From a virus (taxonomy: Duplodnaviria; Caudoviricetes): 64,000 nt of DNA. Each line of letters begins with the position of its first letter. Positions within the stretch are counted from its first letter, which is position 1. Shown one piece after another: positions 9,580 to 64,000 of the stretch. The notes below the pieces were generated by a model that was given only the letters and a program-made list of their open reading frames with translations, was not told the origin of the DNA and did no database searches. The stretch covers positions 96,001 to 160,000 of the IMG/VR virus record IMGVR_UViG_3300031466_000001; one strand, 5' to 3'. Made by a program: the position numbers and the translations under genes.

Positions 9580-10734
9580 ATGGAGAAGAACGGTTTGCTT
9601 GTAATTAATATTGATATTGATGAGAAAGTCAATATTATTGAGGGTCTCAAGTCTCTTAAACCGCTTCCCGGTACTAATTCAAAGGCTAGCTTAGATGAAG
9701 AGAGAAACGAGCCCCTATTGTTGACGAAATTAGGTAAGAAGGATAAAAAGAAAAAGAAGAAAAAGAAAGGAAAAGAAGGTTTATTTGATGGAGTTGATTT
9801 CTCACTAAGTAAAAATTTCGACGACGATGATGAAGGAGAAGAGCAAAAAGAAGAACGAAAATTCACATTCCTCGAAGCGGATGACATGTTCAGAGATGAT
9901 GAAGAAACCGATCTTACTGAGGAAATTAGTAAAGACCAGAAAAAAAATTATAAGAAACGGGAAAGTGACTTCGAGAAAAAATTCGATGAAGAGTTAACTA
10001 TTCTTTATGATCTCTTGGAAGAAGTGAATAAATTCGGTAAATCTCTGGAGAAAAAATATCATGCTTTGGAAGCTAGTAAGGTTAGGGGTATTAGCAAATA
10101 TACCAATGACCTCATAGTCTCAATCCTGTCCAGTAAAGCAAGTAAACTTCAAATTGTTAAAGAAATTGCAGCCATTAAGAAAACAATTCAAGATCTTAAA
10201 TTTAAAGCAGAGAAAGAAGCTCGGGATAAAGAAGGCGATATCTCTAGAGACCAAATTGCCGCAGCATATCTTTCTCGGGTATTTAATAACGTTGGTAGAA
10301 ATAACTTTATTCAAGGTGCTGGTGGAATGGGATTTGCTCCTCGTAGCCAAGATGATGACGATGATGAAGTTCTTGAAGAAATTGAATCCCGTCGTGGAAA
10401 TAGTGACTACCAGCGCGAAAGAATCTATGATATGATCTTGAATCGACTGGAAAATGAAAGAGATGATGGTGTTCGATCTTTCTATAGGGCACCTGAAGCA
10501 GATATTTATCTCAAATATGAGAATGAGGGAATAAATATTTGTGTTAAAAGATGTATTGACGACGGTTCGTGGCAATTTATTGCTGTAAACCGTGACGGTC
10601 AAGAAGTTCCCGACTATCCTCTCCCTAAAAAGAAAGACGTCGGTTCTGTTAAATTTAGTGCAGACGGTCGTCGTATGACTGATGGTAGGGGAGTTACCTA
10701 TAAAGTAATTGAATACTCTGCTCCAATCGAATAA
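9580..10734 (+). CDS. Hypothetical late protein with Lys tract, acidic tracts and coiled coil
   Basis: 384 aa; GGAGG RBS; AACA-CTTTAA-TA at 9541-9552. Confidence 0.75.
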   Translation: MEKNGLLVINIDIDEKVNIIEGLKSLKPLPGTNSKASLDEERNEPLLLTKLGKKDKKKKKKKKGKEGLFDGVDFSLSKNFDDDDEGEEQKEERKFTFLEADDMFRDDEETDLTEEISKDQKKNYKKRESDFEKKFDEELTILYDLLEEVNKFGKSLEKKYHALEASKVRGISKYTNDLIVSILSSKASKLQIVKEIAAIKKTIQDLKFKAEKEARDKEGDISRDQIAAAYLSRVFNNVGRNNFIQGAGGMGFAPRSQDDDDDEVLEEIESRRGNSDYQRERIYDMILNRLENERDDGVRSFYRAPEADIYLKYENEGINICVKRCIDDGSWQFIAVNRDGQEVPDYPLPKKKDVGSVKFSADGRRMTDGRGVTYKVIEYSAPIE

Positions 10735-10786
10735 AAAAATAAAAGAGGATGATGGATTTTACCATCATCCTCTTTTATTGTTGTTC

Positions 10787-11452
10787 TTATGCACGAATAA
10801 GATTTCCGTTTCTTTCCATTTTGAATCTTTGAGCCCGATTCTCTCCGAGCTCTTTATCAACCATGCTACGAAGCTGCCGGAATGTACTTACGATAGCTTC
10901 GTATTCTGCTCGTTTTTCGTGTAAATCGAGGAGCTCATTTTTCAATGACCTGACCTCTGCAGCGTAATGGCGTATCCTCTCTTCCATTTGCAAGAGCATC
11001 ATTTCGGCAGCCTGTCTACGCTGCTGTTCTTCTCTGATAGTATTACGTAAGATTTTTTCATTCTTTGCGTATTCCTGATTTTGTCCTGTGATAACCTTGA
11101 TAAACAAATTGAGAGAATCTATCTCTTCTCTCAAACGTTCAATCACTCGATCCCGTTCTTCGATCTCTTGTGTGGAAAGAGCATCCGCCTTTTGAGCGAT
11201 TGCTATAGCTTCCATAAGATCTGTTTCGGCAGTTGAAGTATCGGCTTCGAGAATAAGACGATACCGTTCAACTTTACGGAAGCGAGTATAAGCACCAAGA
11301 AGTGCAGACGGAGAAACTCGGATATAGTTCTCCGAAATGATTTTGAACGAAGACGAATTGGAATGTCCTTGTTCCCTGAGCGCTTTCATCAGAGTAAACA
11401 AGTACACGATATCTTCATCATTCCAGCGTTTATTGGTTCGATGATTTTTCAT
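10787..11452 (-). CDS. RsfA/GerR(YlbO)-like transcription regulator
   Basis: N-terminal Myb-like W.DED...L...REQG....F...SE....SA; central coiled coil; C-terminal RFKMERNGNL tail seen in RsfA-family proteins; early motif at 11500-11509. Confidence 0.6.
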   Translation of the reverse strand: MKNHRTNKRWNDEDIVYLFTLMKALREQGHSNSSSFKIISENYIRVSPSALLGAYTRFRKVERYRLILEADTSTAETDLMEAIAIAQKADALSTQEIEERDRVIERLREEIDSLNLFIKVITGQNQEYAKNEKILRNTIREEQQRRQAAEMMLLQMEERIRHYAAEVRSLKNELLDLHEKRAEYEAIVSTFRQLRSMVDKELGENRAQRFKMERNGNLIRA

Positions 11453-11537
11453 AAATGTAAGTCCTCCTATTTTATTAATTATATTGACGATTCATATCTA
11501 TAATATATAATCATCAATTTTGAAAATCCGAAAGGTA

Positions 11538-14204
11538 TTATGAAGCCTTAAAAAGAATATTGACATTCCGATAGTTGTCAATAGAGACATCCGACGTCAT
11601 AATAATATCGACAGGATAATTGTCAAACATGTTGTTATGAGTAATAAGGAAAGTTTGTTCGCAATTAATGACATCAAGAAGAGTCTCAAGTATCCCTATA
11701 AAAGTAGTACGATAACTAGTATCAAGTGTAGAATCAATTTCATCCAAAAGCATAATGTTATAATCTCGAAGGGATTGTACGATCAAAGCAAATGAAATTG
11801 CCAATGAAATAAAAGTCCTTTCACCCTGAGAACATCTTATTGCATCATGTACACGAACTCCTTTCTTAATGTATGGAATACGGAATTCATCTTCGTTGAT
11901 AACAAAATCATCGATCTCCAATGTATCTTGGTAAACCGACTCTAGAAGTTGGTTTACAAACGTTTTAGTACTTTTCAAATATAGCTGAATATACAAAAGA
12001 GGTACACCTTTAGTTGAAGAAAGAGACTCTCTAATAATTTCAACTTCTTCGTATTTTTCTTCGAGAGTTTTTCTCTCCTCATTAAGTGCATTGAACTCTC
12101 TCAGCCTATAATCTATGTCTGCAACCTCTGCTTCAAGTTCAGAGATTTCTCTATCTAAGTCTCGTATAGATACCCTATTTCTTTCAATCAACGATAGATA
12201 ATATTGAATTTTACCATGTGTTTCTTTCTTTTCCTCAATAAGCTTAATCGTTTCCTTAAGTTTTTCCTCTGTTTCAGAAATAAGTTCTTTAATTTTCTTA
12301 AATTGATTGAGATCGGCTAATGAGGATTCCAATAAAGTTATTTTTTTATTCAAATCGTTGCTTTCTTCTTTCAATTTTTCAATGTCCTTTTCTACAGAAG
12401 ATATTTGTTCGTCTAATACAAAAATTTCATTTTGAAGAGATGTCAGTGAAGAACTATTTTTTTCGATGAATTGAAGTTCTTTTTTAGTTTCTTTGATTTT
12501 ATTGTCCAATTCTTTAAATTCTTCATATTCCTCCAAAGCAGATATATAATTAGTGATATAATCCTCATCGTATACAATCGTTCTATTTTTTATAGAATTG
12601 AGAATATTTTTAATATTAAAGAAATCCTCAGGCATTCTTTCGATAAGATTTTTGTTAGATTTAATAACCATAAAAATATACTCGATTTTCTTCATAATGT
12701 CGATATATGAAAGAAGTCGTTCTCTCTCAACCTCTAAAGATTCCAATTCTGCTCGAAGTTTCTTTGAGTGAGATTCTTTGTCTGGAATCTGCTTGTGATC
12801 CTCGTAGAATTTTCGATACGGACATTCACAATTCGTATCATGAGGAACATACAAAACATATACCTTATCCTCATTATTCAAATTGATTTTGAGTCTTTCC
12901 AACTCAGAATGAATACTATTTATACGCCTATCGATTTTATTAACTTCTCTGCGTACAAAAGAATCGACATCCTGGCCTTTATTAAACATATCTACTACAT
13001 CATTAATTGAACTGGAGCTAAACTCATAGACATTTGTTGCAACTTCATTTATTTCCTGAAGTAGAGAAAGAGCCTTCAGCATATCATCTTTTGTACATTT
13101 GGGATTGAAATTTTTAAATTTTTCACCAAGCTTATCCTTTTTCTTATTGAGTTCAAGATAGTAATCACTAAGTCGGTCATATTGCAATTCGGAAGACACA
13201 TATTTTAAATTTTCTTCTTTTTCTTGTTTCTGAGTAATAAGTGAATTTAACTGGGTGAAGAAGAAATCAATTTTACTCTTATTGAGAGAGATACTATTCG
13301 TGTGATTATCTATCAACATAGTTATTTCTTTAATTTTAGAATCGACGTCTCCCTCAATAACTAATACATTACTAGAAATCTTCCCGCCAAGGTCATTAAG
13401 ATGAGTTTTGAGACTGGAATACTCTCTTTCCAGAGATTTTGTCTCTAAAATAAATGAATCCAATCCTTGGGGAATTAAAGATTCAATAAACCCTTGGAGC
13501 TTACCATTTTCACTACCAATTTCGTCACGATGTAAACGAAGTTTAGAGATTTTATCATTCAATTTACTCATTTTTTCACGTTCATCATTTTCATTAAAAA
13601 CCTTAAGTTTTGCAATCTTAAAAGTTACAGTTTTTATCAATGATTTAAGAACACGAGCGTCTTCTCCAACTTTTTTATGTAGCTTAAGATAAAGATTGAT
13701 ATCTTTAAGCAAATCTGACATGAAGTTCTTACGATCACTTGCTTTCATATCTATAAACCCTGATACATTAGATCCAAGACGAAGGAGCCTAAAAAGATCG
13801 GACTCGATTGACAATTCGAGTTCGACAATTTCATTAAACGATTTTACATTTCCATTAGGATTAAGCTCCTTACCATTCTTACTAATGAAACTTTTAATAC
13901 CCTTATCGTTTTTAAACTGATAAAAATGTTTAATAATGTATTCGTTACCATTATGGAGATAATGAATCTCCTTATATCCGTTTTCGCCCTCAAGAATAAA
14001 ATCCTTCCCACTCCTAATATCCATAGAACCTGGATATGCATAAGGATTCAAGAGACTGAGAATACTAGTTTTACCTGAACCGTTTGGTCCAACCAGCAAT
14101 ATAATGCGATTTTTTTGATTAGACAAATCTATCTCAATGTGCTTTTTTCCCATTGCTGTAAAAATCGGTGCTATGTTGGTAGCAATAAGCTTTGTAATTT
14201 TCAT
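11538..14204 (-). CDS. sbcC: SbcC/Rad50-like SMC ATPase
   Basis: Walker A GPNGSGKT, long coiled coils, central Cys motif CECP (possible hook), signature SQGE, Walker B LLDEID, H-loop LITH. Confidence 0.9.
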   Translation of the reverse strand: MKITKLIATNIAPIFTAMGKKHIEIDLSNQKNRIILLVGPNGSGKTSILSLLNPYAYPGSMDIRSGKDFILEGENGYKEIHYLHNGNEYIIKHFYQFKNDKGIKSFISKNGKELNPNGNVKSFNEIVELELSIESDLFRLLRLGSNVSGFIDMKASDRKNFMSDLLKDINLYLKLHKKVGEDARVLKSLIKTVTFKIAKLKVFNENDEREKMSKLNDKISKLRLHRDEIGSENGKLQGFIESLIPQGLDSFILETKSLEREYSSLKTHLNDLGGKISSNVLVIEGDVDSKIKEITMLIDNHTNSISLNKSKIDFFFTQLNSLITQKQEKEENLKYVSSELQYDRLSDYYLELNKKKDKLGEKFKNFNPKCTKDDMLKALSLLQEINEVATNVYEFSSSSINDVVDMFNKGQDVDSFVRREVNKIDRRINSIHSELERLKINLNNEDKVYVLYVPHDTNCECPYRKFYEDHKQIPDKESHSKKLRAELESLEVERERLLSYIDIMKKIEYIFMVIKSNKNLIERMPEDFFNIKNILNSIKNRTIVYDEDYITNYISALEEYEEFKELDNKIKETKKELQFIEKNSSSLTSLQNEIFVLDEQISSVEKDIEKLKEESNDLNKKITLLESSLADLNQFKKIKELISETEEKLKETIKLIEEKKETHGKIQYYLSLIERNRVSIRDLDREISELEAEVADIDYRLREFNALNEERKTLEEKYEEVEIIRESLSSTKGVPLLYIQLYLKSTKTFVNQLLESVYQDTLEIDDFVINEDEFRIPYIKKGVRVHDAIRCSQGERTFISLAISFALIVQSLRDYNIMLLDEIDSTLDTSYRTTFIGILETLLDVINCEQTFLITHNNMFDNYPVDIIMTSDVSIDNYRNVNILFKAS

Positions 14205-14271
14205 AGTTTCATCCTCTCCCAAAAAAATAAAATTCCCTCTGTAGATCTGTTACAGAGGGAATTTTATTTGA

Positions 14272-25357: not shown

Positions 25358-27634
25358 TTAAACATCAATTTCAACTACCAACATTTTTTCACGTCTCTTT
25401 GCCAGCTCGATTTCCCGCTGAATCTTTTCTTCAACTTCTTCAGGTGTACCGACGAGAATGATGTCGCCTTGAAATTTCTTTCGGACATCAATTTCTAGCT
25501 TAATGTCATTGAATTCTCTTTCTGTGCAAATGAACAGTCTACCATCGTATTCGTAATCCTTGATCAGGTCAGTATCGATCTTGACAACATACTTATCTTC
25601 TTCGAATTCAATTTTCAATCCTAAAAAGAGAAGATATGCGTTCAAGATCTCAACGTTCCTGTTTATGAAATCATTTCGATCGTTGAATTTCTTCATCTCT
25701 TTGAGATTGGTCATAAGTTCTTCACCAAGATCCCTACGACCAAGTACAGATGATCTGTAGAAGAGATGAAGTTTTGCAATAATATTTGTATCTACACCGA
25801 TGGCACTGTTTATATTTTCTTGGTCGCCAATTCTGATAGGTGTTTTACTATAAAGCTCTTGGTGAGTTTTAGCTTTATTCGTTTTCTCAGGAAGACCTTT
25901 TCTTGATAAACCTCCAGTAGACCGTACACTAAGGCCCTTTTTCGAAGTTTGTTTCAGTTTGAGAATATACATGTCGCCTACAATCAGTGGCTTAAGAATT
26001 TTTATGGTTCGACCAAATTTATTGACATACACGTTATAGGGTTTTATCCAATCGAACTCTTTATAAATCTTCCTAAGTCTATCAAACAACGGCTCAGTTT
26101 CCCATAATGGAGGGACATGGATATAAATTCCCTCTTTGATAATATTATCAAAGAACGTTTCCCTGGACTTTTTGTTGAGAGATTTAATATATTTGGAAAG
26201 TTTCTCAGCTTGCCGTTCATTGAAATGCTGGACAATTCTCACGAGAAGATCTTCTTTTTCATCCAAAGAACTCAATGTAGCCAGTTTTTCCCGAACCCGG
26301 TTACAAATAAACGTTATCGACTGTTCATAAAGCTGCATGGAATTCAACCGGTTAATAACCCCAAGGCTATTGAAAATGACATCGATCCGTTCTCCAGTTT
26401 CGAGGAATGGCATTTCTTCATCTGGTACAATTACCGATACAACACCTTTATTACCATGTCGTCCAGTAATTTTTTGACCAGCACTGAGAGAGATATTTCT
26501 CTCAATCGTGAATTCAATGATCATGTTACTGAATACGGAATTATCTTCTTCTCTCCACTTATAATTTTCGTCAAGATAGTTCTTTGCTCGTTTGTAATAA
26601 TAGTTAATGTCTGATGAATAGTTAGAACCTGATTCAATGATTTTCTTACAACGGAGATAGATCTTTCGATAGAAGTTCTCCTGAAGCTCCAAGTATTTGA
26701 TAAATTGAGAATTGAAGCTATTTCTCTCAATCTTATCGAGAGGTTTATTGCAATAGATATTTATATCTACTACTCGCCCCTCGCAGAAATAAAGAGTATC
26801 GGAAGAATAATTGATCTTTCTGAGATTGGATTTTTTCAAATCGTAAAGCAATTGAGAATTGTGAATTCTTCTTTTTGCACAAACGATCCTATCGACGACA
26901 AACTCATTGATATCCGGAAAGCACTTATATGTTTCGGAGTCGCCATAAATGTTCGGAAGTATGTCATTATCGTTTACCGAAACCTTTACGGTTTCAATCT
27001 CTTTGGACAACATTTCATTCGCCAGAGATTGAGATACCTTAACAGCATCTTCAATGGTATAGTTGTCCAACAGATAAACGAATTTTACGTTCTTACCATA
27101 ACAATAGTTCATATTGTCATCATACGACGTTGTCTTATAGAGAACTTCTCCCTTTTTGACAACGTCGCCAACTTTTTTCGAATCGATAACATCGGTGTTA
27201 TATGAATAGCCGAATTTCTCGGTCAAATCTTCAACAACACGTTTTTCAATGATGTCGTACATATCCTTCTCTTTGTCATAGACAAACAAGAAGTAAATAT
27301 GATCATCATTGACACCATCTTCATACTTGGAAACCTTATCGATGATTTCCAAATCGGATTTGGCTTTATAATAGCCAGTAGAATTCTTACCAACAATATT
27401 TTCATAGTTGGTGAACACAAACGGGAAATCCGGATTAACGAGATTCACAGCCTGACGAAGATGGCTTGTAAACATAATATTTCTGGCCGAACTGATATAT
27501 CCAGGATTGGTAAGCAATGTTGCTCCGAATATATCGTCTTTAAAACTGAATTCTTTTTCTTTCTCAGCCAATGCCTCTCTAAGACTTAAAGTTTCTGAGG
27601 GTGCCTCTCTTCTACCTTGAGCCATTCCAACCAT
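25358..27634 (-). CDS. RNA polymerase beta subunit, C-terminal half (probably non-virion RNAP)
   Basis: MFTSHLRQAV, YTIEDA, GQKITGRHGNKGVVS, MPF, N.LGV.NRLN, GDMYILKL, PIRIGDQE; early motif 27663-27672. Confidence 0.92.
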   Translation of the reverse strand: MVGMAQGRREAPSETLSLREALAEKEKEFSFKDDIFGATLLTNPGYISSARNIMFTSHLRQAVNLVNPDFPFVFTNYENIVGKNSTGYYKAKSDLEIIDKVSKYEDGVNDDHIYFLFVYDKEKDMYDIIEKRVVEDLTEKFGYSYNTDVIDSKKVGDVVKKGEVLYKTTSYDDNMNYCYGKNVKFVYLLDNYTIEDAVKVSQSLANEMLSKEIETVKVSVNDNDILPNIYGDSETYKCFPDINEFVVDRIVCAKRRIHNSQLLYDLKKSNLRKINYSSDTLYFCEGRVVDINIYCNKPLDKIERNSFNSQFIKYLELQENFYRKIYLRCKKIIESGSNYSSDINYYYKRAKNYLDENYKWREEDNSVFSNMIIEFTIERNISLSAGQKITGRHGNKGVVSVIVPDEEMPFLETGERIDVIFNSLGVINRLNSMQLYEQSITFICNRVREKLATLSSLDEKEDLLVRIVQHFNERQAEKLSKYIKSLNKKSRETFFDNIIKEGIYIHVPPLWETEPLFDRLRKIYKEFDWIKPYNVYVNKFGRTIKILKPLIVGDMYILKLKQTSKKGLSVRSTGGLSRKGLPEKTNKAKTHQELYSKTPIRIGDQENINSAIGVDTNIIAKLHLFYRSSVLGRRDLGEELMTNLKEMKKFNDRNDFINRNVEILNAYLLFLGLKIEFEEDKYVVKIDTDLIKDYEYDGRLFICTEREFNDIKLEIDVRKKFQGDIILVGTPEEVEEKIQREIELAKRREKMLVVEIDV

Positions 27635-27690
27635 CCCTTCTTTTTTCTTTCTATACCTATTTATAATATATAAAATAAAGAAGCGATGGT

Positions 27691-28962
27691 TTACACCACC
27701 GCTCCTAATTCACTAACTTCATCGTATGCTTCACCCTCTTGAGATCTACTCAAGCGGATAAGAGTTTCCGTAAGGTCGACAACCTTAGAGGTTTCATCGG
27801 GATCGACTCTAGAGAGTTGCTTTTCAAGTAACGGGATAGTTGAATTGTATAGTGCGAATCTGAGTTTTTCGTCAGCCATAAAACTCTCACGAAGTTTTCT
27901 GTCGTCAAATTTAATGTCTTCATAGCCAATGACATACTTTTTAGGATTCTTGCCGCCGATAAGTTCATTGGCTTGAGCAAATGCATATTGCGAATAAATA
28001 TGGTCAAAACCACACATTTGATTGTAAACCAAATCACAATATTGCCCAGCCATATTGGTTCTGGATTTGAGAAAGTCTACTCTAACATCAAAACCGTTAA
28101 AACCATCTTTATCCATCGTACGTTTATCCCCAACTTTAGATGTGAATTTCACGAGAGTGTTAGCATAATAAAGTGGAGCGAAACCACCTGGAATAGATTC
28201 ATCCATACCAAGATAATTGAGCTGGGGTTGTGTACGTTGCATCGGATTGATATTGATTTTAGTTTTGAGATGGTTAATTGCAATGACGATGATATTATAG
28301 CTCTTAATGACAGGGATTAGTCGGTTGTAAAATTGTGAAAGTGCTCTTGCTACACGGTTGGCATACGTCATACCCGCCATACCTTCCATTTCTTCTTCCT
28401 TGGATGCCATGACAGGAATGGAGTCAATAATGACAACCGTAGGCACAAAAGCCATGATGGGATTACCGAATTCATCTTTTAATTTTGTGTCATACATCAT
28501 ATTTTCACGTTCTTCTTCTTTAACTTTGCAGATAGCAAGAATAGCATCGAGGATATCCTCAATATAGCTTTCCTCTTGTTTAAGAACGTATTTTTCTTCG
28601 AGTTCAACAGTCGAAAAACCGGTAACGTTCCTAACACGAGTATATGTAGTAGCTCGTTCGAGATCATAATGCTGGACGAAACCATTCGGAAAAGGACGCA
28701 CAATATTAGCTGCCGCCTGAATAGCAAATGTGGATTTAGCTGTACCGGGTTTTCCAATAATGGTTACAAAGGAACCTCCAAGAATACCAACAGAAGGATA
28801 TTCTTCTACCAGGCTGTCGTTGTTGTCTTTTACCTGGATCATATATCCATTACGATAATCAAAGGTTGAGAATCCTGTTCTATAACTAATAGAAGTTTGT
28901 GTTTTTCTGAAGAGACCACGTTTGTCATTTTCCCTGAGACGGGCCAAAAGTCTATTAGACAT
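27691..28962 (-). CDS. recA: RecA/UvsX-like recombinase
   Basis: TGF..FD, Walker A GKPGTAKS, YDLE, VIIDSI, INHL, PGG.A..YYA. Confidence 0.88.
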   Translation of the reverse strand: MSNRLLARLRENDKRGLFRKTQTSISYRTGFSTFDYRNGYMIQVKDNNDSLVEEYPSVGILGGSFVTIIGKPGTAKSTFAIQAAANIVRPFPNGFVQHYDLERATTYTRVRNVTGFSTVELEEKYVLKQEESYIEDILDAILAICKVKEEERENMMYDTKLKDEFGNPIMAFVPTVVIIDSIPVMASKEEEMEGMAGMTYANRVARALSQFYNRLIPVIKSYNIIVIAINHLKTKININPMQRTQPQLNYLGMDESIPGGFAPLYYANTLVKFTSKVGDKRTMDKDGFNGFDVRVDFLKSRTNMAGQYCDLVYNQMCGFDHIYSQYAFAQANELIGGKNPKKYVIGYEDIKFDDRKLRESFMADEKLRFALYNSTIPLLEKQLSRVDPDETSKVVDLTETLIRLSRSQEGEAYDEVSELGAVV

Positions 28963-29161
28963 ATTTAAACATCCTTCCTACAATTTTAGGAATTTTAACA
29001 AGACGAACAGGCTTAAACTTCTTTTTATATTTCAACAAAATTTGACCACAATCATCACATTTGATAACTTTAAAAGTAGATTCATGAATGGGGGTCGCTT
29101 TATCTCATTTTGCGATACCACAAGTAGGACAAATCAATTCTTCGGTGACCATACATACCAT
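28955..29161 (-). pseudogene. Zinc-ribbon gene with in-frame TGA
   Basis: GGAGG RBS; MVCMVTEELICPTCGIAK*DKATPIHESTFKVIKCDDCGQ..., 69 codons in one frame, stop overlapping recA start. Confidence 0.6.
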
Positions 29162-29270
29162 ACTTCCTCCTATTCGTTATATAGTTTAATATAAAGTTCC
29201 TCATATAATAAAAAGAAAAAAAATAGGTAAGACCAGATGCAGAAGAGCATCTGGTCTTACCATTACGTTA

Positions 29271-30188
29271 TTAGTACTTAACTTTGAGGATTCGACGATC
29301 AGAGAAGAGTCCGTAAACGAGTTTGAATTCGTGCAGGAAATTGACTTCTTGACCGTAAACGTCTTCAAATGCTTCGATAGCGTCATCGTACTTGTACGAC
29401 GACGAGTTCACGAAGAGCGTAACAGCAGAGAAGAATTGCGACTTGACGTCTTCAACAACTTCTCTGACCGTTTCCGGCGTAACTTCAACGATCGTATGCT
29501 TACTCGGATCGATAAGCTCATCGAGCTTAGCACGATCACCCGGCAGGGTAAGAACCAGATGAGTAACACGAGCCGGGCGGAAACGTTTAACTGCGATGAA
29601 ATCATACGATTCGTCATCCGGAAGCTTCTCGCCACCAGTGATGTTCAGTACGATTCCTTCTTCGCTGCTGGAGAATTCATATGTAGTAAGCTCGCGGGTT
29701 TCTTCTTCCAGAAGCGTAAAGGTGAACTTCGAAGACGGGTTGTTGAACGAAACGATGAACGAAAATTCACCGCTATAGACAAAACTTTCCAGAAGGAAAG
29801 TGTTATGATTGTCCATGGAGACAATCTTCCGGCCACGCAGACGAACCGATGCGAGTAGAATGTCCTTGACATTCTCAGCGCTCTCGCTAACGAACGGCCG
29901 GAACGCTTTGCGATTGAAGGTGATATTGGTGTTACGAGTCGGGATGGAACAAACCACACCCTTGTCGTTGTTCACTTCACCTTTAACGATTTCAACAACT
30001 TGGTCATAATCTTCAAAGATCGAGTGATAAGCAAGAATCGAAATTACTTGTCGCGTGATCTTTTTACGTTTGTTGTTGAATCGACTTTCCGGCGCATCTT
30101 TGCGCTTCATGAAACGGACAACATTTCCAGAATCGTTGATTTTTTCGATGGTCCACTGATTTTTTGTTTCATTGTAGATGCTGAACAT
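29271..30188 (-). CDS. Hypothetical protein, high-expression codon bias
   Basis: GGAGGT RBS before ATG 30188; late motif 30217-30228; terminator hairpin downstream. Confidence 0.8.
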   Translation of the reverse strand: MFSIYNETKNQWTIEKINDSGNVVRFMKRKDAPESRFNNKRKKITRQVISILAYHSIFEDYDQVVEIVKGEVNNDKGVVCSIPTRNTNITFNRKAFRPFVSESAENVKDILLASVRLRGRKIVSMDNHNTFLLESFVYSGEFSFIVSFNNPSSKFTFTLLEEETRELTTYEFSSSEEGIVLNITGGEKLPDDESYDFIAVKRFRPARVTHLVLTLPGDRAKLDELIDPSKHTIVEVTPETVREVVEDVKSQFFSAVTLFVNSSSYKYDDAIEAFEDVYGQEVNFLHEFKLVYGLFSDRRILKVKY

Positions 30189-30273
30189 TTGTTCTACCTC
30201 CATTGTGATTGGAATCTAATGAATTGTTAATAATTTAATAAAGAAATATTTGGAAAAAAAGTGATCCGGAAAT

Positions 30274-30540
30274 TTATCCCAGATCAACTTTTACATTCCC
30301 ATATTGATCGGTGATCATAAAACCACCATTTTCTTTTTTAACGTCGCTTGCATCAAGCTTTCGGTCGTCTCTCCGAAACTTCATTCTAACGGAACCATCG
30401 CCGTCAACGTATATATTTATGTTCCTTGATGACCCAGCGACGCCAAGGAGTTCGATTCGACCAAACACTCTTTCCAGTATATCAAGCTGATCTTTGGTTC
30501 CAGTAATAGTATAAGTTCTGGTCTCTTTCTCCATATGCAT
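30274..30540 (-). CDS. Hypothetical phage protein
   Basis: 88 aa, AAGGAG RBS; G..GSSR.I.IYVDGDG motif. Confidence 0.65.
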   Translation of the reverse strand: MHMEKETRTYTITGTKDQLDILERVFGRIELLGVAGSSRNINIYVDGDGSVRMKFRRDDRKLDASDVKKENGGFMITDQYGNVKVDLG

Positions 30541-30620
30541 TCTCCTTATGCTATTTTATTATTTTTTCGAGAAGAAAAATAAACGCGGAGTGTGATCAAC
30601 ACACTCCGCGTTTCTGGTAA

Positions 30621-31505
30621 TCAAAGATACTTGGCGTACTTTTCTTTCTCCGAAAGTTTGTTCGTAACCTTCCGGATCTTCGGATAGTTCTCTTCCGAGA
30701 TCGAGGAGAATTGAATGCGACGGGCCCCATCGTTACCTTTGCTGTCTTCCTTGATACGGATATTGACATACCGATCAATCAGAAGATCTTCGATTTCACC
30801 CTTCTTGCACTCTTCAAGCGTGTCAAGTGCGAACTCGGTCATCCGATTCCATACATTGAGCTGACGCTCATTGAAGTTCCGGTGCGTGTCTTTGCGCTCA
30901 AGGAGAATTGCGATTGCAACGTAGTTGAGAGCATCTTCACCGAAGAGCTGCTTAAACAGCTTCCGGATACTCTTTGCGCTGTCCAGACCGATATCGTTTT
31001 CCTTCGCAATCGCATAGAGCTTGCGAAGAACGTTGCGTACATGAACCCCGATATAACGGTCGTCCACAACGACTTGCGGATGCGTTACAACAACGAGCAG
31101 TTCCTTGATGAGATCTTCGCTCAGGCCGGTCTTTTCGGCGACCTTCTTGACACGCTTCTTCAGGAGCTTGTCGATAATATCGCGGTAGGCATCGACAACT
31201 TTTGCGTCGAGATTGTCATAACGCCATTCCACGAGAGTATTGATGACCATCGCAAGAGCAAGGTCGACCCGCGGCGGGTTTTCTTTATCCTTCAGGAGCT
31301 TCTGAAGGGTCTTGACAAACTTCGGAGATGCCATGCGGTCGAAGAGTTCGGAAATCACTTCCGCATTCTTCTTCCGATGACCTTCCTCGATGTAGAAGCT
31401 AACGATGTCGTCCAGGTAGCCCCTGAGGACGGCCATGCGTTGCTCCTTGTCCCATTCTTTGACCTTCTTCGGTTTCCACGTTTTGAGGAATTCTTTGATC
31501 GCCAT
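30621..31505 (-). CDS. Alpha-helical hypothetical protein downstream of the tubulin/FtsZ gene
   Basis: GGAGG RBS; strong C/G-ending codon bias; terminator at about 30582-30614. Confidence 0.8.
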   Translation of the reverse strand: MAIKEFLKTWKPKKVKEWDKEQRMAVLRGYLDDIVSFYIEEGHRKKNAEVISELFDRMASPKFVKTLQKLLKDKENPPRVDLALAMVINTLVEWRYDNLDAKVVDAYRDIIDKLLKKRVKKVAEKTGLSEDLIKELLVVVTHPQVVVDDRYIGVHVRNVLRKLYAIAKENDIGLDSAKSIRKLFKQLFGEDALNYVAIAILLERKDTHRNFNERQLNVWNRMTEFALDTLEECKKGEIEDLLIDRYVNIRIKEDSKGNDGARRIQFSSISEENYPKIRKVTNKLSEKEKYAKYL

Positions 31506-31568
31506 CTTTTGTTTGCCTCCCATTTAATTTTTTTGGCTTATACTTATTTTGTTTATTCAATTATAAAT

Positions 31569-32690
31569 TTACATAAATTTACTGAACTCATCATCGAGGT
31601 TGTCTTCGCTGATTCGTTTGGAGATGGTTTCAGTTTGACGAAGACTCTTGATGAGATCAGTTTTAACGTCATCGAGAAGAGAAGTTTCCTTGGTGCGGGT
31701 GAGTTGAGCTTCTACTTCAGCAATGCGCTGAGCGATCTTCTCAATCCGATCATCTGGAATAGAGAGACCCGACATAATGGCGATAACGCGATTCACGTCG
31801 TCGTTAACGCCATTGATGTAAATATGCTCAAACTCTTCAACCGGCTCGCCAAGAATCGATTTGAACTTGGGCATAGTCGGATCAAACGCTTTGTGGATTT
31901 TCTCACTCAGATTGGTGATCAATCCAAACTTGCGAATGATCATATCTCTGTCAAGTTCGGCATGAGCGCTCACTTTCAAGGAATCGATGAGGCGATCTTC
32001 GATAGATTTATCATCGATATCCTTTTCGCGGAACCCAGATACCTTGGCTACAACGAGTCGACCGGGAGTATTGAGAATCTTCCACGAGTCTCTTTCGTCG
32101 ATGCTCGTGTATGGCGTGGTATATTGGTAATCACCACGGATAATTGCAATGTCCTCAACGATTTCCCGGTTCACTTCATGGAACATTTCGCTACGGGTCT
32201 TATGCGCCCGCTTCTCGTTGTCATACAGCATGAAAGTCGGATTGATTTGCTTGATTTCTTTCATGTATTCGATCGTATTTTGTTGTGCAGCAACCGACTC
32301 TTTCAGTGGTGGGAGAATTCCGACCGGGATGAACTTTTTATTCGGAAAATACCCACTGAGAATGTGAGTAAGTACCGGTCCAATGGCCGACCCACTTCCG
32401 CCACCGGTCGATCCGGGAATGAAGATGACATTGTTCTCCTCAATGACTCGGAGCATGACATCCATACTGAGCAACTTCTTCATGTTGTCACGAAGAAATT
32501 GCTTTGCGATCGTCCGATCTTTACCGGCACCTTTCTCGTCGCCGATGCAGATCACATCGATGTTCTTGATTGTTGAAATGTCGTCATTTGAGGTATTGAG
32601 AGCCACTCCATCAATACCAAAATCTTTTTTTCCTTGGTCCGCAGTTTGCCCACCTGCGTTTCCAACACCGATAATTCCAACTTTTTGCAT
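31569..32690 (-). CDS. FtsZ/tubulin-family GTPase (PhuZ/TubZ-like)
   Basis: GVGNAGG, GAGKD, signature GGGSGS, T7-like SIDERD, C-terminal coiled coil; early motif 32738-32747. Confidence 0.88.
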   Translation of the reverse strand: MQKVGIIGVGNAGGQTADQGKKDFGIDGVALNTSNDDISTIKNIDVICIGDEKGAGKDRTIAKQFLRDNMKKLLSMDVMLRVIEENNVIFIPGSTGGGSGSAIGPVLTHILSGYFPNKKFIPVGILPPLKESVAAQQNTIEYMKEIKQINPTFMLYDNEKRAHKTRSEMFHEVNREIVEDIAIIRGDYQYTTPYTSIDERDSWKILNTPGRLVVAKVSGFREKDIDDKSIEDRLIDSLKVSAHAELDRDMIIRKFGLITNLSEKIHKAFDPTMPKFKSILGEPVEEFEHIYINGVNDDVNRVIAIMSGLSIPDDRIEKIAQRIAEVEAQLTRTKETSLLDDVKTDLIKSLRQTETISKRISEDNLDDEFSKFM

Positions 32691-32790
32691 TCGTTGATCT
32701 CTCCTTACCATAGAATATTATTATTTTAGACTTGATGATAATATATATTTGTTTTGGGGTTTATATTTTTTCAGAGATCGCTAGAATTAA

Positions 32791-60038: not shown

Positions 60039-60143
60039 TAAAGAAATAAGAGATCCCCTATACAAGTCTTTTGTATGGGGGGTTCTCTTTTTTGAAAACA
60101 TTATAATAAATTATTGGATGTCTGTGTAAAGGAGGATACAGTC

Positions 60144-60783: not shown

Positions 60784-61218
60784 ATGGCAACTTTAAGAAA
60801 ATTAAAAAACTTCAGCGAAAATAACCTAACAACATTGGATAAAATTATCGCTATAACTCTCGGAGATTCCGATATAGATTGGTATGATGAAACCAAAATT
60901 TATAATGCCGATGATTTAATTATTAGGGTAAATCCTTCTACTGGGAAGAAGGAGATTTTATCTTGTAAAAAATCCGGGGCGACTGGTCCATTTGATATTA
61001 ATGATTGGCAAGTTGTAAACATGACCAATATTTCATCAACTAGCGTAATCCCAGTATCTGAAGAAGAACCTCCGAATCCAAAACCGAATATGATTTGGTT
61101 TAAAAATATGGGGGAGTCACCAGATTTCGGTGACAACATTATAATAATTATAGGTAATGTTAGTCTCGACGGAACAACCGAATTTTGGTTTGATTCCAAT
61201 AACAGAGACGGCGAATAG
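60784..61218 (+). CDS. Tail-associated protein
   Basis: WYDETKIY...GPFD..DW carbohydrate-binding-like segment; VSEEEPP.P..NMIWF fibre-type motif. Confidence 0.6.
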   Translation: MATLRKLKNFSENNLTTLDKIIAITLGDSDIDWYDETKIYNADDLIIRVNPSTGKKEILSCKKSGATGPFDINDWQVVNMTNISSTSVIPVSEEEPPNPKPNMIWFKNMGESPDFGDNIIIIIGNVSLDGTTEFWFDSNNRDGE

Positions 61219-61251
61219 AAAAACAGTAAAAGAAAGGGGGTAAGATGAGAA

Positions 61252-63405
61252 ATGAGCAGTAAAAACATTCAGATTCGTCACAAGAATGGTAGTGAATGGG
61301 ATAATTTATACCCAAAAACAAAAGCGGAATTAGTAGAAGGTCTTGATGAGCAACTTGCCGGAAAGGTTGATAAAGAAGAAGGTAAAGGTCTTTCTACTGA
61401 AGATTATACTACAGAAGAAAAGAATAAACTTGCGGGCATTGAGGAAGGAGCCAACAAATACGTTCATCCAACTAGTGCTGGTAATAAACATATTCCTTCT
61501 GGCGGTGCGCCTAACCAGGTACTTAAATATGGCGGTTCGTCAGGAACCGCAACATGGGGTGCTCTGACATCTGCAGATATTCCTACATTGGCTCTTAGTA
61601 AGATTTCCGATGCAGGTACAGCAGCTTCCAGAGATATCGGTACTTCTGCTGGTAATGTGCCTGTATTGGATAGCAATGGTAAACTTGATGTTAATGTCCT
61701 TCCTGCAATTGCTATTTCGGATACTTTCGTTGTCGGAAGCGAAGGAGAAATGCTGGGTCTTACTGCGGAAGTTGGTGATATCGCGGTACGATCGGATATC
61801 AACAAAACATTCATTTTGAGAGCAGAACCTGCATCCGTAGTTGGCAACTGGCAAGAACTTTTGACTCCGACTTCCCCTGTACAATCTGTTGCAGGTAAAA
61901 CCGGTGCAGTTACACTGGTTAAAGGTGACGTGGGACTCGGAAACGTCCAAAACTATGGAATAGCAACACAGGAAGAAGCAGAAGCCGGAACGTCCGATAC
62001 CGCGTACATGACGCCGCTTAAAACAGCGCAGGCGATTGCTGCACTTGCACCCGCGCCGGATGCTTCGGAAGTTTCGCTTAGTTCACCGAATTTCACTTCT
62101 ACCAACGTCCGGGATGGAATGGATGAACTTTTTCAATCTGTCAGTGATGGGAAAAATCAGATCGCTTCCGCCATCACTGACATGGGACAGTCTGCTTCAG
62201 GAGGCGACACGTTTGCGCAGTTGTCAAGCAAAATTCGGGACATCTCCAAGGACGCGAACGCGGCTGTTGGGGATGTTTTGACCGGTAAGACGTTTTATCA
62301 GGGCGGAGTAAAGCGCACCGGCACGATGCCCAATAACGGATCGGTTTCCCAAACGCTGACATCACAAGGCGAAGAATACACGATCCCGGAGGGATACCAC
62401 GACGGCACCGGCACGGTCACGACCGACATCGTGAATCTGTCCGCAGGAAATATCCGAGCCGGTGCGACGGTAGGCGGCGTTGATGGTACGTTCACTAGCG
62501 ACGCGACAGCCACGGCTGGTCAAATCTTGTCTGGCCGGACGGCGTATGTTAACGGCTCGAAGGTAACCGGCAGCATGATCAACAATGGAGCCGTCAGTCA
62601 AACCTTGACCACGCAGGGGGCGTCGTACACAATCCCGGCAGGTTATCACAATGGCAGCGGCACAGTCACGGCCAATATCACCAACTTGACGGCGGCCAAT
62701 ATCAAGGCTGGTACGACGGTCGGCGGCGTATCTGGAACATTCACAAGCGACGCAACCGCAACAGCCGCACAAATCTTGTCTGGCCGGACGGCGTATGTTA
62801 ACGGCTCGAAGGTAACCGGCACGATGCCAGTCAAAACAAATGATTATGGCGCACCGCGTACAGGCCAAACTGGGCGTCTGTATGTGACACCGGAAGCAGG
62901 ATACCATGACGGGACTGTAAGGGTCTATACGGACGACGCTAATTTTAATGCTGCCAATATCAAGTCTGGGGTTACGCTGTTCGGAATAACCGGTACGTAT
63001 GCGCCGATTTCCGTAGGTAGTACAACCCTGACATTTAACCGATCCGGCTCCGGTAACAATGTTACGTCGATTATCTATTATGCGAATTACACGCCGCCCA
63101 AGACAAACTTTTTGGGGTCGTTCCAAATACCCGTTACGTTCACAATCGGGAACATTGAATATAAAGGAGACCCGTTTAACAGCATCACGATCGGATATCC
63201 GACAAACCTAATCTTCGGCTATGGTTTGTACATTGTCGACCCGACCGTTAATGCAGAAATACAAATCAGCGCCATTTATAATAGTAGCACTGGCCGTATT
63301 CAACTACAGATTGGTAACCCGTCCACAGCAAGTCCTAAAGCGTTGTTTACCAATATCAGCACCAATAGCTTTACAGCGGGTTTACGGTATGTTTCATGGG
63401 AGTGA
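61252..63405 (+). CDS. Tail fibre / receptor-binding protein, chimeric
   Basis: LYPKT, KVDKEEGKGLSTEDYT, VQSVAGKTGAVTL, FQSVSDGK..IASAIT, repeated DATATA.QILSG.TAY and YTIP.GYH.G.G units. Confidence 0.88.
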   Translation: MSSKNIQIRHKNGSEWDNLYPKTKAELVEGLDEQLAGKVDKEEGKGLSTEDYTTEEKNKLAGIEEGANKYVHPTSAGNKHIPSGGAPNQVLKYGGSSGTATWGALTSADIPTLALSKISDAGTAASRDIGTSAGNVPVLDSNGKLDVNVLPAIAISDTFVVGSEGEMLGLTAEVGDIAVRSDINKTFILRAEPASVVGNWQELLTPTSPVQSVAGKTGAVTLVKGDVGLGNVQNYGIATQEEAEAGTSDTAYMTPLKTAQAIAALAPAPDASEVSLSSPNFTSTNVRDGMDELFQSVSDGKNQIASAITDMGQSASGGDTFAQLSSKIRDISKDANAAVGDVLTGKTFYQGGVKRTGTMPNNGSVSQTLTSQGEEYTIPEGYHDGTGTVTTDIVNLSAGNIRAGATVGGVDGTFTSDATATAGQILSGRTAYVNGSKVTGSMINNGAVSQTLTTQGASYTIPAGYHNGSGTVTANITNLTAANIKAGTTVGGVSGTFTSDATATAAQILSGRTAYVNGSKVTGTMPVKTNDYGAPRTGQTGRLYVTPEAGYHDGTVRVYTDDANFNAANIKSGVTLFGITGTYAPISVGSTTLTFNRSGSGNNVTSIIYYANYTPPKTNFLGSFQIPVTFTIGNIEYKGDPFNSITIGYPTNLIFGYGLYIVDPTVNAEIQISAIYNSSTGRIQLQIGNPSTASPKALFTNISTNSFTAGLRYVSWE
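61857..61931 (+). repeat. 75-bp direct repeat, copy 1 (inside fibre gene)
   Basis: ACTTTTGACTCCGACTTCCCCT...AAAGGTGACGT identical to 63889-63963. Confidence 0.95.
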
Positions 63406-63458
63406 AATCGTGATGACGAGAGAGGACTCATTATACAGATCGCATCGGCGGCCAAGCC

Positions 63459-63608
63459 GAGCAATATAAACAAATCACCGGATTTGATTATGAAGCGTAA
63501 GGCTCCGCCGAATAGGCGGGGCCTCATAATCTGCACAGTGTGGTACAATTAGACGCTATGACGGCAGAAGAATATGAGCAGATTACGAGCGAGCCGTACA
63601 CACCCTAA
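63459..63608 (+). pseudogene. Two XkdX-like C-terminal remnants
   Basis: EQYKQITGFDYEA* (63459-63500) and VVQLDAMTAEEYEQITSEPYTP* (63540-63608) match the XkdX IT.E(E/Q)Y..ITG..Y tail. Confidence 0.6.
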
Positions 63609-63630
63609 TTAGGCGCAGAGACGTGTAATT

Positions 63631-63657
63631 AGACCCTGCTTAATGCGGGGTCTTTTT
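63631..63657 (+). terminator. Rho-independent terminator
   Basis: AGACCCTGC-TTAAT-GCGGGGTCT-TTTT. Confidence 0.75.
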
Positions 63658-63761
63658 GTTGACTTCGTAGTGACAAAAGGGAAATTTTATACGATAATAG
63701 TGTTAAAGTACTCGTAAAGTACGATTACGTTACCGTCGCTGGAAGGGGTGGAAAAGTTCCG

Positions 63762-63809
63762 ATGGACTTTACGAGCCTTGGAGAGTACGGCGTAGGAATC
63801 GCGTCATGA
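63762..63809 (+). pseudogene. Truncated holin-like gene start (15 codons)
   Basis: GGAAGGGGTG RBS + MDFTSLGEYGVGIAS*; preceded by sigmaA-like GTGACA-17-GATAAT. Confidence 0.45.
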
Positions 63810-64000
63810 CTTCTCCCGATGGTATAAACTGGACGATTCGTTCAACTCCGGCGGATAACAACTGGTATTCCGTCACTTATGGCAACGGACTTTTGACTCC
63901 GACTTCCCCTGTACAATCTGTTGCAGGTAAAACCGGTGCAGTTACACTGGTTAAAGGTGACGTTGGTCTTGATAATGTTGAAAACTACGGTATCGCTTCT
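63806..64000 (+). CDS. Second tail-fibre continuation, fused to a propeller-repeat fragment; runs off window
   Basis: MTSPDGINWTIRSTPADNNWYSVTYGNGL-LTPTSPVQSVAGKTGAVTLVKGDVGLDNVENYGIAS, open to end of window. Confidence 0.7.
   Translation, partial: MTSPDGINWTIRSTPADNNWYSVTYGNGLLTPTSPVQSVAGKTGAVTLVKGDVGLDNVENYGIAS
63889..63963 (+). repeat. 75-bp direct repeat, copy 2
   Basis: Identical to 61857-61931 and read as the same peptide. Confidence 0.95.

Follow-up and report, generated by a model that had tools for sequence, protein, structure and literature searches.

Probable duplicative capture of a foreign receptor-binding module in a tail-fibre-like gene of a jumbo phage from thermophilic compost cultures

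The range of bacteria that a phage can attack is set by the ends of its tail fibres. In Mu (G segment, Gin), P1 (C segment, Cin) and e14 (Pin), a serine invertase acts on inverted crossover sites and the inversion is fully reversible. Diversity-generating retroelements, such as that acting on Mtd in BPP-1, target the receptor-binding end of the fibre. Direct duplications with a novel joint, known from T4 rII and from lambda, are unstable and segregate by homologous recombination. Tail fibres may also be mosaics. The origin of phage mosaicism through relaxed homologous recombination is established, and the same study reported no exchanges between virulent and temperate coliphages (PMC3945230).

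The locus described here lies in a 64,000-nucleotide stretch of phage DNA (hereafter the window) belonging to a large jumbo phage, with a tubulin and a multisubunit RNA polymerase, from thermophilic compost cultures. As in mosaic tail fibres, a constant virion-proximal part is followed by a horizontally acquired and putatively receptor-binding distal part, the crossover falls in a short conserved motif amid diverged sequence, and a sharp boundary marks the identity with an unrelated phage; unlike in them, there is no clean replacement, one joint being illegitimate and staggered and the displaced end being kept. The partners here are a jumbo phage and a 53-kb contractile-tailed phage. The Gin, Cin, Pin and Min switches likewise have a constant N-terminal part and two stored C-terminal ends, one in frame at a time, whereas here the repeats are direct, the alternative end has the same orientation, no recombinase was found among the proteins scanned, and a deletion would be one-way. 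The locus resembles the duplications of T4 rII and lambda in that extra DNA lies between directly duplicated copies and that generalised recombination could precisely restore the parental gene; however, only 75 nt are duplicated here, around 1,957 nt of foreign DNA bringing a new gene end, and the allele is sufficiently stable to form the consensus in 12 samples or more. The receptor-binding fibre end is also what the BPP-1 retroelement targets, but here a whole module was replaced, and neither a reverse transcriptase (RVT) among the scanned ORFs and neighbours nor a template/variable repeat pair was seen. A programmed direct-repeat excision system or cassette library differs in turn from this locus, which has two copies of the site in 82 kb and one state in contigs.

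The 75-nt sequence occurs exactly twice in the window with no mismatch, the copies starting 2032 nt apart (Table 1), whereas 100 dinucleotide-preserving shuffles gave an expectation of zero such repeats. Both copies are in frame and encode LLTPTSPVQSVAGKTGAVTLVKGDV: codon 203 of the 717-aa gene begins at 61858 in the first copy (R1), and codon 29 of the ORF starting at 63806 begins at 63890 in the second (R2). The reading frame continues with GLGNVQNYGIAT after R1 and with GLDNVENYGIAS after R2. In these respects the original prediction, which described a captured foreign fibre cassette between identical in-frame repeats with an alternative fibre end parked behind it, was accurate; its hand counts of GC (39/60 at 62461-62520 against 24/60 at 61321-61380) were exact, and the shift in codon style that it described is found as well. 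More specifically, T-ending codons make up 44% of the N-terminal part, 44% of the repeat and 45% of the sequence after R2, against 25% in 62134-63402, a value equal to that of the fibre gene in the donor-like phage. In the 82 kb that was read of this genome (about 212 kb or more), there was no further copy of the 75-mer and no other exact repeat of 28 nt or longer, with the exception of a 52-mer within the cassette; the repeats at the two ends of 61857-63963 are direct, and no inverted pair encloses this interval.

Table 1. Features of the repeat-flanked locus and candidate recombination genes; positions are those of the window.
Feature	Position	Strand	Remarks
SbcC/Rad50-like ORF	11538-14222		from scan of large ORFs
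RecA/UvsX-like ATPase	27691..28962	-	Pfam RecA E=1.3e-5, 25.2 bits (curated cut-off 27)
Chimeric 717-aa tail-fibre-like gene	61252..63405	+	native N-terminus, repeat copy 1 and foreign C-terminus
Native N-terminal part, aa 1-202	61252..61856	+	own codon style, GC 0.43
Repeat copy 1 (R1)	61857..61931	+	75 nt, exact match to copy 2
Foreign segment A, donor-type fibre repeat unit and linker	61932..62133	+	GC 0.52-0.54
Foreign segment B	62134..63520	+	shaft repeats, tip domain, stop codon and 115 nt of 3' flank; L087 match
Segment C	63521..63794	+	tail of a small ORF (...AMTAEEYEQITSEPYTP, stop), terminator, sigma-70-like site
Segment D, one-blade fragment of a 42-aa beta-propeller repeat gene	63795..63888	+	94 nt, NRVMTSPDGINWTIRSTPADNNWYSVTYGNG
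ORF2, 225 aa in full	63806..64000 (to 64483)	+	28 aa of propeller, repeat and native C-terminus
Repeat copy 2 (R2)	63889..63963	+	75 nt, exact copy
Start of displaced native C-terminus	63964..64000	+	runs on to 64483; read on L004 12713-13232

The 717-aa gene is a chimera. In PHROG it matches families of minor tail, tail fibre and virion structural proteins, and its N-terminal part shows 66-69% identity to protein P0007, aligns with the proteins P0012, P0051, P0044, P0060 and P0068 of about 400 aa, and also matches actinophage genes annotated as minor tail protein and virion structural protein. By homology, and from the position of the donor-like gene, the 717-aa product can be assigned to the tail-fibre or receptor-binding type. 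Segment B is 96.7% identical in DNA, over 1388 nt and with sharp boundaries on both sides, to positions 10634-12021 of an otherwise unrelated 53-kb contractile-tailed phage contig (L087) that matches nothing else in the window or in L004, a contig identical (100%) to the last 9 kb of the window. The encoded protein is 95% identical over 428 aa to P0125, whose gene in L087 occupies the canonical position of a tail fibre, immediately behind Baseplate_J and Mu Gp48 and followed by XhlA, amidase-SLH and holin. The third-position composition of the insert equals that of L087, unlike that of its flanks, and among 1.84 billion representative proteins P0125 is the sole real relative of the tip (aa 575-717). 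The DNA match and the codon shift together identify the segment between the repeats as foreign, as had been predicted. The L087-type near-donor comes from ENA assembly ERZ795072, whose accession adjoins that of ERZ795069, in which the jumbo phage is present. A scan of representative bacterial genomes with P0125 found no prophage that would name a host; the endolysins of the two phages are 30% identical in their amidase/SLH parts, a level silent on a shared host. For the tip (aa 560-717), structure prediction from the single sequence reached a mean pLDDT of 32.5, too low to be usable. Wider searches gave no near match to 60800-64000 among GenBank phages, where the insert matched only through a 60-nt motif, no relatives in IMG/VR when the 216-aa neighbour was used to look for related loci, no Pfam match for the five proteins of the cluster and no Rfam match in 61000-64000.

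Segment A is a donor-type copy of a fibre repeat unit of wide distribution (GLGNVQNYGIAT...YMTP...QAIAAL). It is absent from L087, and its differences from the native sequence after R2, to which it is homeologous, are mostly of the wobble type; its boundary with segment B lies near an SVSDGK motif that is also present in another phage contig (L023). The linker unit is common to three of the cluster's genes. A-type sequence forms the 3' half of the extra unit in a 307-aa variant of the next gene, so that part of the apparently foreign sequence is also in circulation among paralogues of the phage itself.

The sequence parked behind R2 is native. In L004 the frame after R2 meets no early stop and runs on to complete ORF2, the last 172 aa of which, ending ...SGTEPTNADFWYQEI, are the displaced C-terminus. 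Joining the N-terminal part, one repeat and the parked end yields a virtual product of 399 aa that aligns from 1 to 399 with P0012 (413 aa), P0051 (420), P0044 (411), P0060 (399) and P0068 (398). This colinearity with five natural proteins of 398-420 aa, together with the native codon style, bears out the prediction of an alternative native end, and a single recombination between the repeats would indeed place a constant part of 227 aa in frame with it and give the natural 399-aa architecture. P0007 has this architecture too, followed by a homologue of the next gene, and in one relative (G001), in which 836 nt stand in place of 60361-64766, the 144- and 249-aa genes are fused into one 363-aa gene; these fused forms suggest that the native ...WYQEI end might bind the N-terminus of the next protein.

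The two joints are of different kinds. On the left, the joint falls at KGDV/GLGNV (slash at the joint), inside a unit that is repeated in many fibres; to the right of the repeat the two copies stay alignable with wobble-type differences, and at the crossover the donor-type motif, as seen in the extra unit of contig L094, has GACGT alone in common with the native one. On the right, there is no homology to the native gene upstream of R2 except the microhomology TGGCAAnnnACTTTT at the D/R2 joint, where segment D ends GGCAACGGACTTTT and the native gene reads GGCAAGAACTTTT, and this joint lies 75 nt upstream of the left one on the native gene. Segment D is at most 92.6% identical in DNA to the repeat units of a 786-aa fibre gene in high-GC phage contigs (L022 and L023), the latter from sample 3300033752, the source also of this jumbo phage's contig. 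A junction of this sort, at which 94 nt of a propeller gene adjoin native sequence through a microhomology, bears the mark of accident. Segment C, with an intrinsic terminator predicted at 63631-63653 (L004 12380-12402) and a sigma-70-like site predicted at 63670-63698 (L004 12419-12447), had no match in L087, L023, viral contigs or metagenome contigs, and two more patterns drawn from it had none either. Contigs L088 and L089 were rejected as its donors, being unrelated contigs with 25-nt matches to a 24-mer alone.

The structure is thus probably a scar left when a foreign receptor-binding module was recently acquired by duplicative capture, and not a dedicated switch. The ancestral fibre-like gene would have encoded about 399 aa, its N-terminal part being followed by a conserved linker unit and by a C-terminus ending ...FWYQEI. 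While the phage replicated in a cell where DNA from other phages was also present, a foreign stretch of 1,957 nt would have been joined in: a linker unit of donor type, then the distal 428 aa from the tail fibre of a contractile-tailed phage with its stop and 3' flank, then a spacer bearing a terminator, and lastly the scrap of a beta-propeller fibre gene. Since no donor with A, B, C and D contiguous was found, the insert was perhaps built in more than one step. The left joint may have formed by relaxed (homeologous) recombination within the conserved motif and the right one through the microhomology, the stagger between them duplicating the 75 nt. Copy-choice (template switching) or two joints on sister molecules would be the simplest explanations of the stagger, both being compatible with the sequence; a Campbell-type single reciprocal crossover appears to be ruled out, both copies being fully native over the 75 nt. 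The outcome would be a 717-aa fibre with a native virion-attachment end and a foreign receptor-binding end, which may have changed receptor specificity, and an old C-terminus left silent behind a terminator. By recombining homologously, the repeats could eliminate the cassette and restore the ancestral gene precisely; such a deletion, unobserved so far, would be one-way and generic to any like duplication.

The allele carrying the cassette has spread and diversified since. It is the consensus in every sample with the locus, all contigs examined carry it, and the 717-aa gene is intact in at least 12 samples and four haplotypes; the database cluster of the protein holds five variants from 16 contigs, all of 717 aa. 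The allele is thus established and looks functional. In the four alleles compared, there are no SNPs in 61252-61856 or in the native C-terminus after R2, and 31 sites differ in the tip region 62869-63332, at 20 of which the L087 state is found, suggesting continued exchange. Alleles b and d carry a SNP in R1 (61865 C>T, Thr to Ile) that is absent from R2, which reduces the match between the copies to 74/75; R1 and R2 already differ in six of the ten full-length contigs examined. The next gene has gained a chimeric 58-aa unit, the 307-aa variant with this extra unit being seen in L094. All four combinations of the R1 SNP with the tip haplotype exist and, with the chimeric unit and the G001 replacement, mark the locus as prone to recombination.

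An alternative is that the locus is a selected, revertible host-range device, in which recombination of the RecA/UvsX type steadily yields minority revertants as a bet-hedge across hosts. As a contingency locus of this sort, its 75-nt repeats would continually seed precise revertants and maintain two receptor specificities at the population level without a dedicated recombinase. A deletion would be precise, in frame and productive of a natural-looking 399-aa protein, and 66-75 nt of identity should suffice for homologous recombination, for which T4 reportedly requires about 50 bp. The phage encodes RecA-like and SbcC-like proteins, unequal exchange has taken place among like repeat units in the next gene, and the parked end is intact in all alleles. 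Recombination by the phage RecA had been proposed from the outset, and a RecA/UvsX-like ORF is present and a possible agent of recombination between the repeats, but its score falls below the Pfam cut-off (Table 1). No recombinase was found in the Pfam matches of the neighbours (about 22 kb) or of 20 large ORFs of the window, in agreement, as far as the ORFs were scanned, with the earlier statement that the window encodes no invertase or reverse transcriptase.

Several observations stand against such a device. Neither the excised 399-aa allele nor an ORF across the D-R-A circle junction occurs among the proteins of about 15 billion sequences, so that the predicted excision product is in no assembly. 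The excised-junction pattern had no match in viral contigs, nor the 75-mer core in viral or metagenome contigs, both weak results, as the records nearest the window may lie outside the sets; the protein-database result is the stronger. The difference between R1 and R2 in most full-length contigs shows that their identity is not maintained, and the anatomy of the right junction, a propeller scrap at a microhomology, looks accidental and speaks against a dedicated system. Nor does the proposed reversibility hold, because a cassette deleted between direct repeats departs as a circle that does not replicate and is lost, leaving the lineage unable to switch back alone. The array of 75-mers expected of a cassette library is absent, with two copies alone in 82 kb, and the notion of an exchange system stocked with modules finds a single parked end and, bar the 52-mer, no further repeats of 28 nt or more. 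Because the native parts are free of SNPs throughout, the intact state of the parked end carries no signal of selection. A selected device is accordingly an unlikely account of the locus.

Less probable again is the reading of the locus as two ordinary adjacent paralogous fibre genes, of 717 and 225 aa, whose linker was homogenised by gene conversion and in which nothing was inserted or displaced. Gene callers do predict ORF2 in every contig, three of the cluster's genes share the linker unit, and L094 shows in its extra unit an instance of conversion between paralogues. However, the first 28 aa of ORF2 are part of a foreign propeller blade without an upstream ORF, its ATG at 63806 being an internal Met codon of the propeller repeat unit; ORF2 has no N-terminal domain, whereas the N-terminal part and parked C-terminus together fit a full natural architecture; and the left edge of the identity is an illegitimate joint. 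ORF2 also lies downstream of the predicted terminator and has a weak AGGA ribosome-binding site where neighbouring genes have the GGAGG type. A proposed promoter-like motif, AACA-N6-TA, precedes the 206-, 717- and 249-aa genes (at 60097, 61135 and 64622) and was not found before ORF2. From these signals, ORF2 appears to be an accidental reading frame and is probably silent.

An assembly artefact, in which two phage genomes or variants were threaded through the common 75-mer, has next to no probability, for although short-k Logan contigs, those of SRR8874265 alone, break inside the repeats (R1 after its first 30 nt, R2 with 30 nt still to run), as a real repeat would cause, the serial order of N-terminal part, repeat, insert, repeat and C-terminus was assembled independently from 12 or more samples, among both JGI and ENA contigs, and in four haplotypes, the novel C/D and D/R2 joints are present in all those assemblies, and the insert differs from the co-occurring L087-type phage, their identity being 96.7%.

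The origin of new fibre ends in virulent and jumbo phages is mostly inferred from old, blurred mosaics. Here, under the preferred reading of a duplicative capture, both joints of a very recent event are readable, a near-donor is known and the displaced end survives, which makes the locus a concrete, testable example of how one homeologous and one illegitimate joint can make a new fibre, and a clear snapshot of host-range evolution instead of a proven switch. Jumbo phages that encode tubulin build a nucleus-like compartment, and the locus could serve to examine if the genetic isolation that such compartments suggest is real in jumbo phages. If this phage builds one, the captured module would show that DNA of a small phage, whether co-infecting or resident, can reach its genome and recombine with it.

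A 75-nt sequence has exactly two matches in the window, at 61857-61931 (R1) and 63889-63963 (R2), where 100 shuffles gave an expectation of none, and both copies encode the same in-frame peptide, LLTPTSPVQSVAGKTGAVTLVKGDV. The identical in-frame repeats of the original prediction are thus borne out at 75 of 75 positions, and its hand counts of GC content were exact on recount. R2 lies in an ORF (ORF2) that runs past the window end; on the 133-kb contig L004 (JGI contig Ga0373396_000167), which matches the last 9 kb of the window at 100%, its stop falls at window position 64483, giving 225 aa. According to exact-protein look-ups, the order 144-aa gene, 717-aa gene, 225-aa ORF, 249- or 307-aa gene is common to contigs that come from three data sources and represent at least 12 samples. 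In two of these samples the source was a thermophilic, compost-derived, switchgrass-degrading community (PMC5155067). One contig with the 717-aa protein has a length of 212 kb. The order is broken only in the short-k Logan contigs of SRR8874265, which stop 30 nt inside R1 and resume 30 nt short of the R2 end, the kind of break to be expected from a real 75-nt repeat. A copy of the 717-aa protein (P0363) is deposited in NCBI as HEY8396537.1, on a 5.8-kb contig of a 'Flavihumibacter sp.' MAG that is probably a mis-binned phage contig.

When aa 1-227 of the 717-aa protein are fused to ORF2 aa 54-225, the virtual product has 399 aa and aligns end to end with natural proteins of 398-420 aa (P0012, P0051, P0044, P0060 and P0068). 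P0007 has the same architecture, with an N-terminal part 69% identical, and continues in one reading frame into a homologue of the gene that comes next in the window phage. The sequence after R2 is thus the gene's original C-terminus, pushed aside by the insert. ORF2 residues 1-28 are a propeller fragment, and the ATG of ORF2 corresponds to a Met codon inside the propeller repeat. ORF2 lies downstream of a predicted terminator and has a weak ribosome-binding site (AGGA); the candidate promoter motif AACA-N6-TA, which precedes the neighbouring 206-, 717- and 249-aa genes by about 50-120 nt (at 64622 in a similar form before the last), was not found before it. A 17-nt near-repeat, TGA(A/C)AACATTATAATAA, upstream of the 206- and 717-aa genes (60093-60109 and 61131-61147) may be a phage promoter element.

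Features of the fibre locus, its haplotypes and the jumbo-phage hallmark genes
Feature	Position	Strand	Description
717-aa ORF	61252-63405		contains R1
Segment A	61932-62133		fibre repeat unit of donor type, with linker
Segment B	62134-63520		96.7% DNA identity over 1388 nt to L087; stop codon and 115 nt of 3' flank included
Segment C	63521-63794		without known source; terminator and sigma-70-like site inside
Intrinsic terminator	63631-63653		predicted, within segment C
Sigma-70-like site	63670-63698		predicted, within segment C
Segment D	63795-63888		mid-blade fragment of a 42-aa beta-propeller repeat
ORF2	from 63806, past window end		contains R2
Haplotype a			window allele
Haplotype b	62550-62829		25 changes
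Haplotype c	62869-63332		31 changes in tip region; L087's base at 20 of 31
Haplotype d			as c, with one more SNP
Extra 58-aa unit	L094:12170-12360, just after window-equivalent 65000		5' half own type, 3' half foreign A-type
RNA polymerase Rpb2-like subunit	25358-27634	-	jumbo-phage hallmark
RecA-like ATPase	27691-28962	-	jumbo-phage hallmark
Tubulin/FtsZ-family protein	31569-32711	-	jumbo-phage hallmark

The insert (61932-63888) consists of at least four pieces, segments A to D. The protein of segment B is 95% identical over 428 aa to P0125, encoded on L087, a 53-kb contig of a contractile-tailed phage (ENA ERZ795072). The P0125 gene has sheath, tube, Baseplate_J and Mu Gp48 genes on its 5' side and XhlA, amidase-SLH and holin genes on its 3' side, a position between baseplate genes and XhlA/amidase-SLH/holin that marks it as the tail fibre of L087. 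Third-codon composition tells the native and foreign pieces of the locus apart: T-ending codons make up 44-45% in the N-terminal part, in the repeat and downstream of R2, matching other genes of the phage, and 25% in segment B, the same value as in the L087 fibre gene. For the tip domain (aa 575-717), P0125 is the sole real relative among 1.84 billion representative proteins, so transfer between the two lineages was recent and close to direct. Segment D is up to 92.6% identical to a 786-aa fibre gene of the high-GC phage contigs L022 and L023, and sample 3300033752 is the source of both L023 and L004. About 12 kb before the window start, a GC-rich island (L106:4800-5400) holds 30 nt matching L022/L023 at 100%, just downstream of their endolysin gene, and has no match to L087; a phage of this high-GC type may have contributed fragments to the jumbo genome at two separate sites. 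Adjacent 712- and 707-aa genes at L004:14482-19057 (window-equivalent 65733-70308), each followed by a 99-aa ORF, hold 14 copies each of a propeller repeat of SFSPDGQYIAV type, 132 nt (44 aa) long and with 84-92% identity; its family is not the one from which segment D derives.

Four haplotypes occur at the locus. In alleles b and d a C>T SNP at 61865, in R1 only, leaves the repeats identical at 74 of 75 positions, and all four combinations of this SNP with the tip haplotype are present, which is evidence of recombination among strains. The bases shared with L087 in the tip of haplotype c suggest repeated exchange with the donor phage population after capture. Segment B contains internal tandem repeats (62377-62821) of 249 nt that are about 79% identical and share an exact core of 52 nt (at 62521 and 62770); the private changes of allele b cluster there and look like conversion between these repeats or with another donor. 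The native parts show no SNPs among haplotypes, and the intact displaced end is therefore uninformative on selection. The next gene encodes 249 aa, or 307 aa in alleles b-d, the difference being a chimeric 58-aa linker unit whose A-type 3' half is the type found after R1 in the 717-aa gene. This unit indicates exchange between paralogous fibre genes at a KGDV|GLGNV motif common to the left joint. The nearest relative compared, G001 (L001/L002), shows about 93-95% identity in either flank of the locus and has 836 nt in place of the 4.4-kb island at 60361-64766; a single fused 363-aa gene (a 144-aa-like N-terminus and a 249-aa-like protein) stands there, with no 717-aa gene and no ORF2. The whole fibre cluster is a variable island and a hot spot of recombination that has a common linker unit as its basis.

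Past the right edge of the repeat, the sequences can still be aligned for about 100 nt, with mostly wobble-type differences, which places the left joint inside a homeologous region. Other strains (L094) keep a donor-type version of the motif, in the added unit of their next gene, and this version has only GACGT in common with the native sequence at the crossover. Left of R2 the only homology to the native gene is TGGCAAGAACTTTT (native) against TGGCAACGGACTTTT, where the propeller fragment ends. Since both copies are native over an identical stretch of 75 nt, one reciprocal crossover with a circle would not account for them. It would take two joints, one homeologous and the other mediated by microhomology, with a stagger of 75 nt between them on the native gene; the stagger could have come from copy-choice or from joints on sister molecules.

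The original prediction read this arrangement as a candidate reversible host-range switch, operated by recombination between the repeats with excision of 2032 bp. The flanking repeats are in direct, not inverted, orientation. Pfam searches of about 22 kb of neighbouring genes and of 20 large window ORFs gave no hit to a recombinase or a reverse transcriptase, and in the 82 kb read, with the two propeller-repeat genes set aside, the 75-mer and the 52-mer inside the cassette are the only exact repeats of at least 28 nt. Neither the 399-aa excised allele nor the circle-junction ORF occurs among the proteins of a large collection. The phage is of jumbo type, with a tubulin, an RNA polymerase beta-like subunit, gyrase, ligase, an SbcC-like protein and a weak RecA-like protein (25.2 bits, below cut-off), and jumbo hallmarks lie at 25358-32711. 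Given the SbcC-like and RecA-like genes, general recombination between the 75-nt repeats is plausible. Exact reversion by this route is possible and would be one-way; it is unobserved, and there is no indication of selection for it. The observation and most of the structural reasoning stand; a dedicated switch is not supported, and the mechanism that best fits the anatomy is an accident in which a foreign receptor-binding module was captured with duplication.

A TEP...W(F/Y)xxx motif ends both the 144-aa gene (~61090-61215) and ORF2 (~64440-64483), and the proteins next in line, of 717 and 249 aa, begin with an I.I....G.W..L.P.T.A..V motif. Such neighbours are fused into one polypeptide in G001 and P0007, so the separate fibre proteins may connect end to end in the virion; in that case the cassette allele would moreover have lost the end at which the 249-aa protein docks. 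Fibre mosaicism by relaxed recombination is a known kind of event (PMC3945230, PMC3157838). The present example is unusual in how fresh and complete it is, and it connects a jumbo phage to a small phage with a contractile tail.
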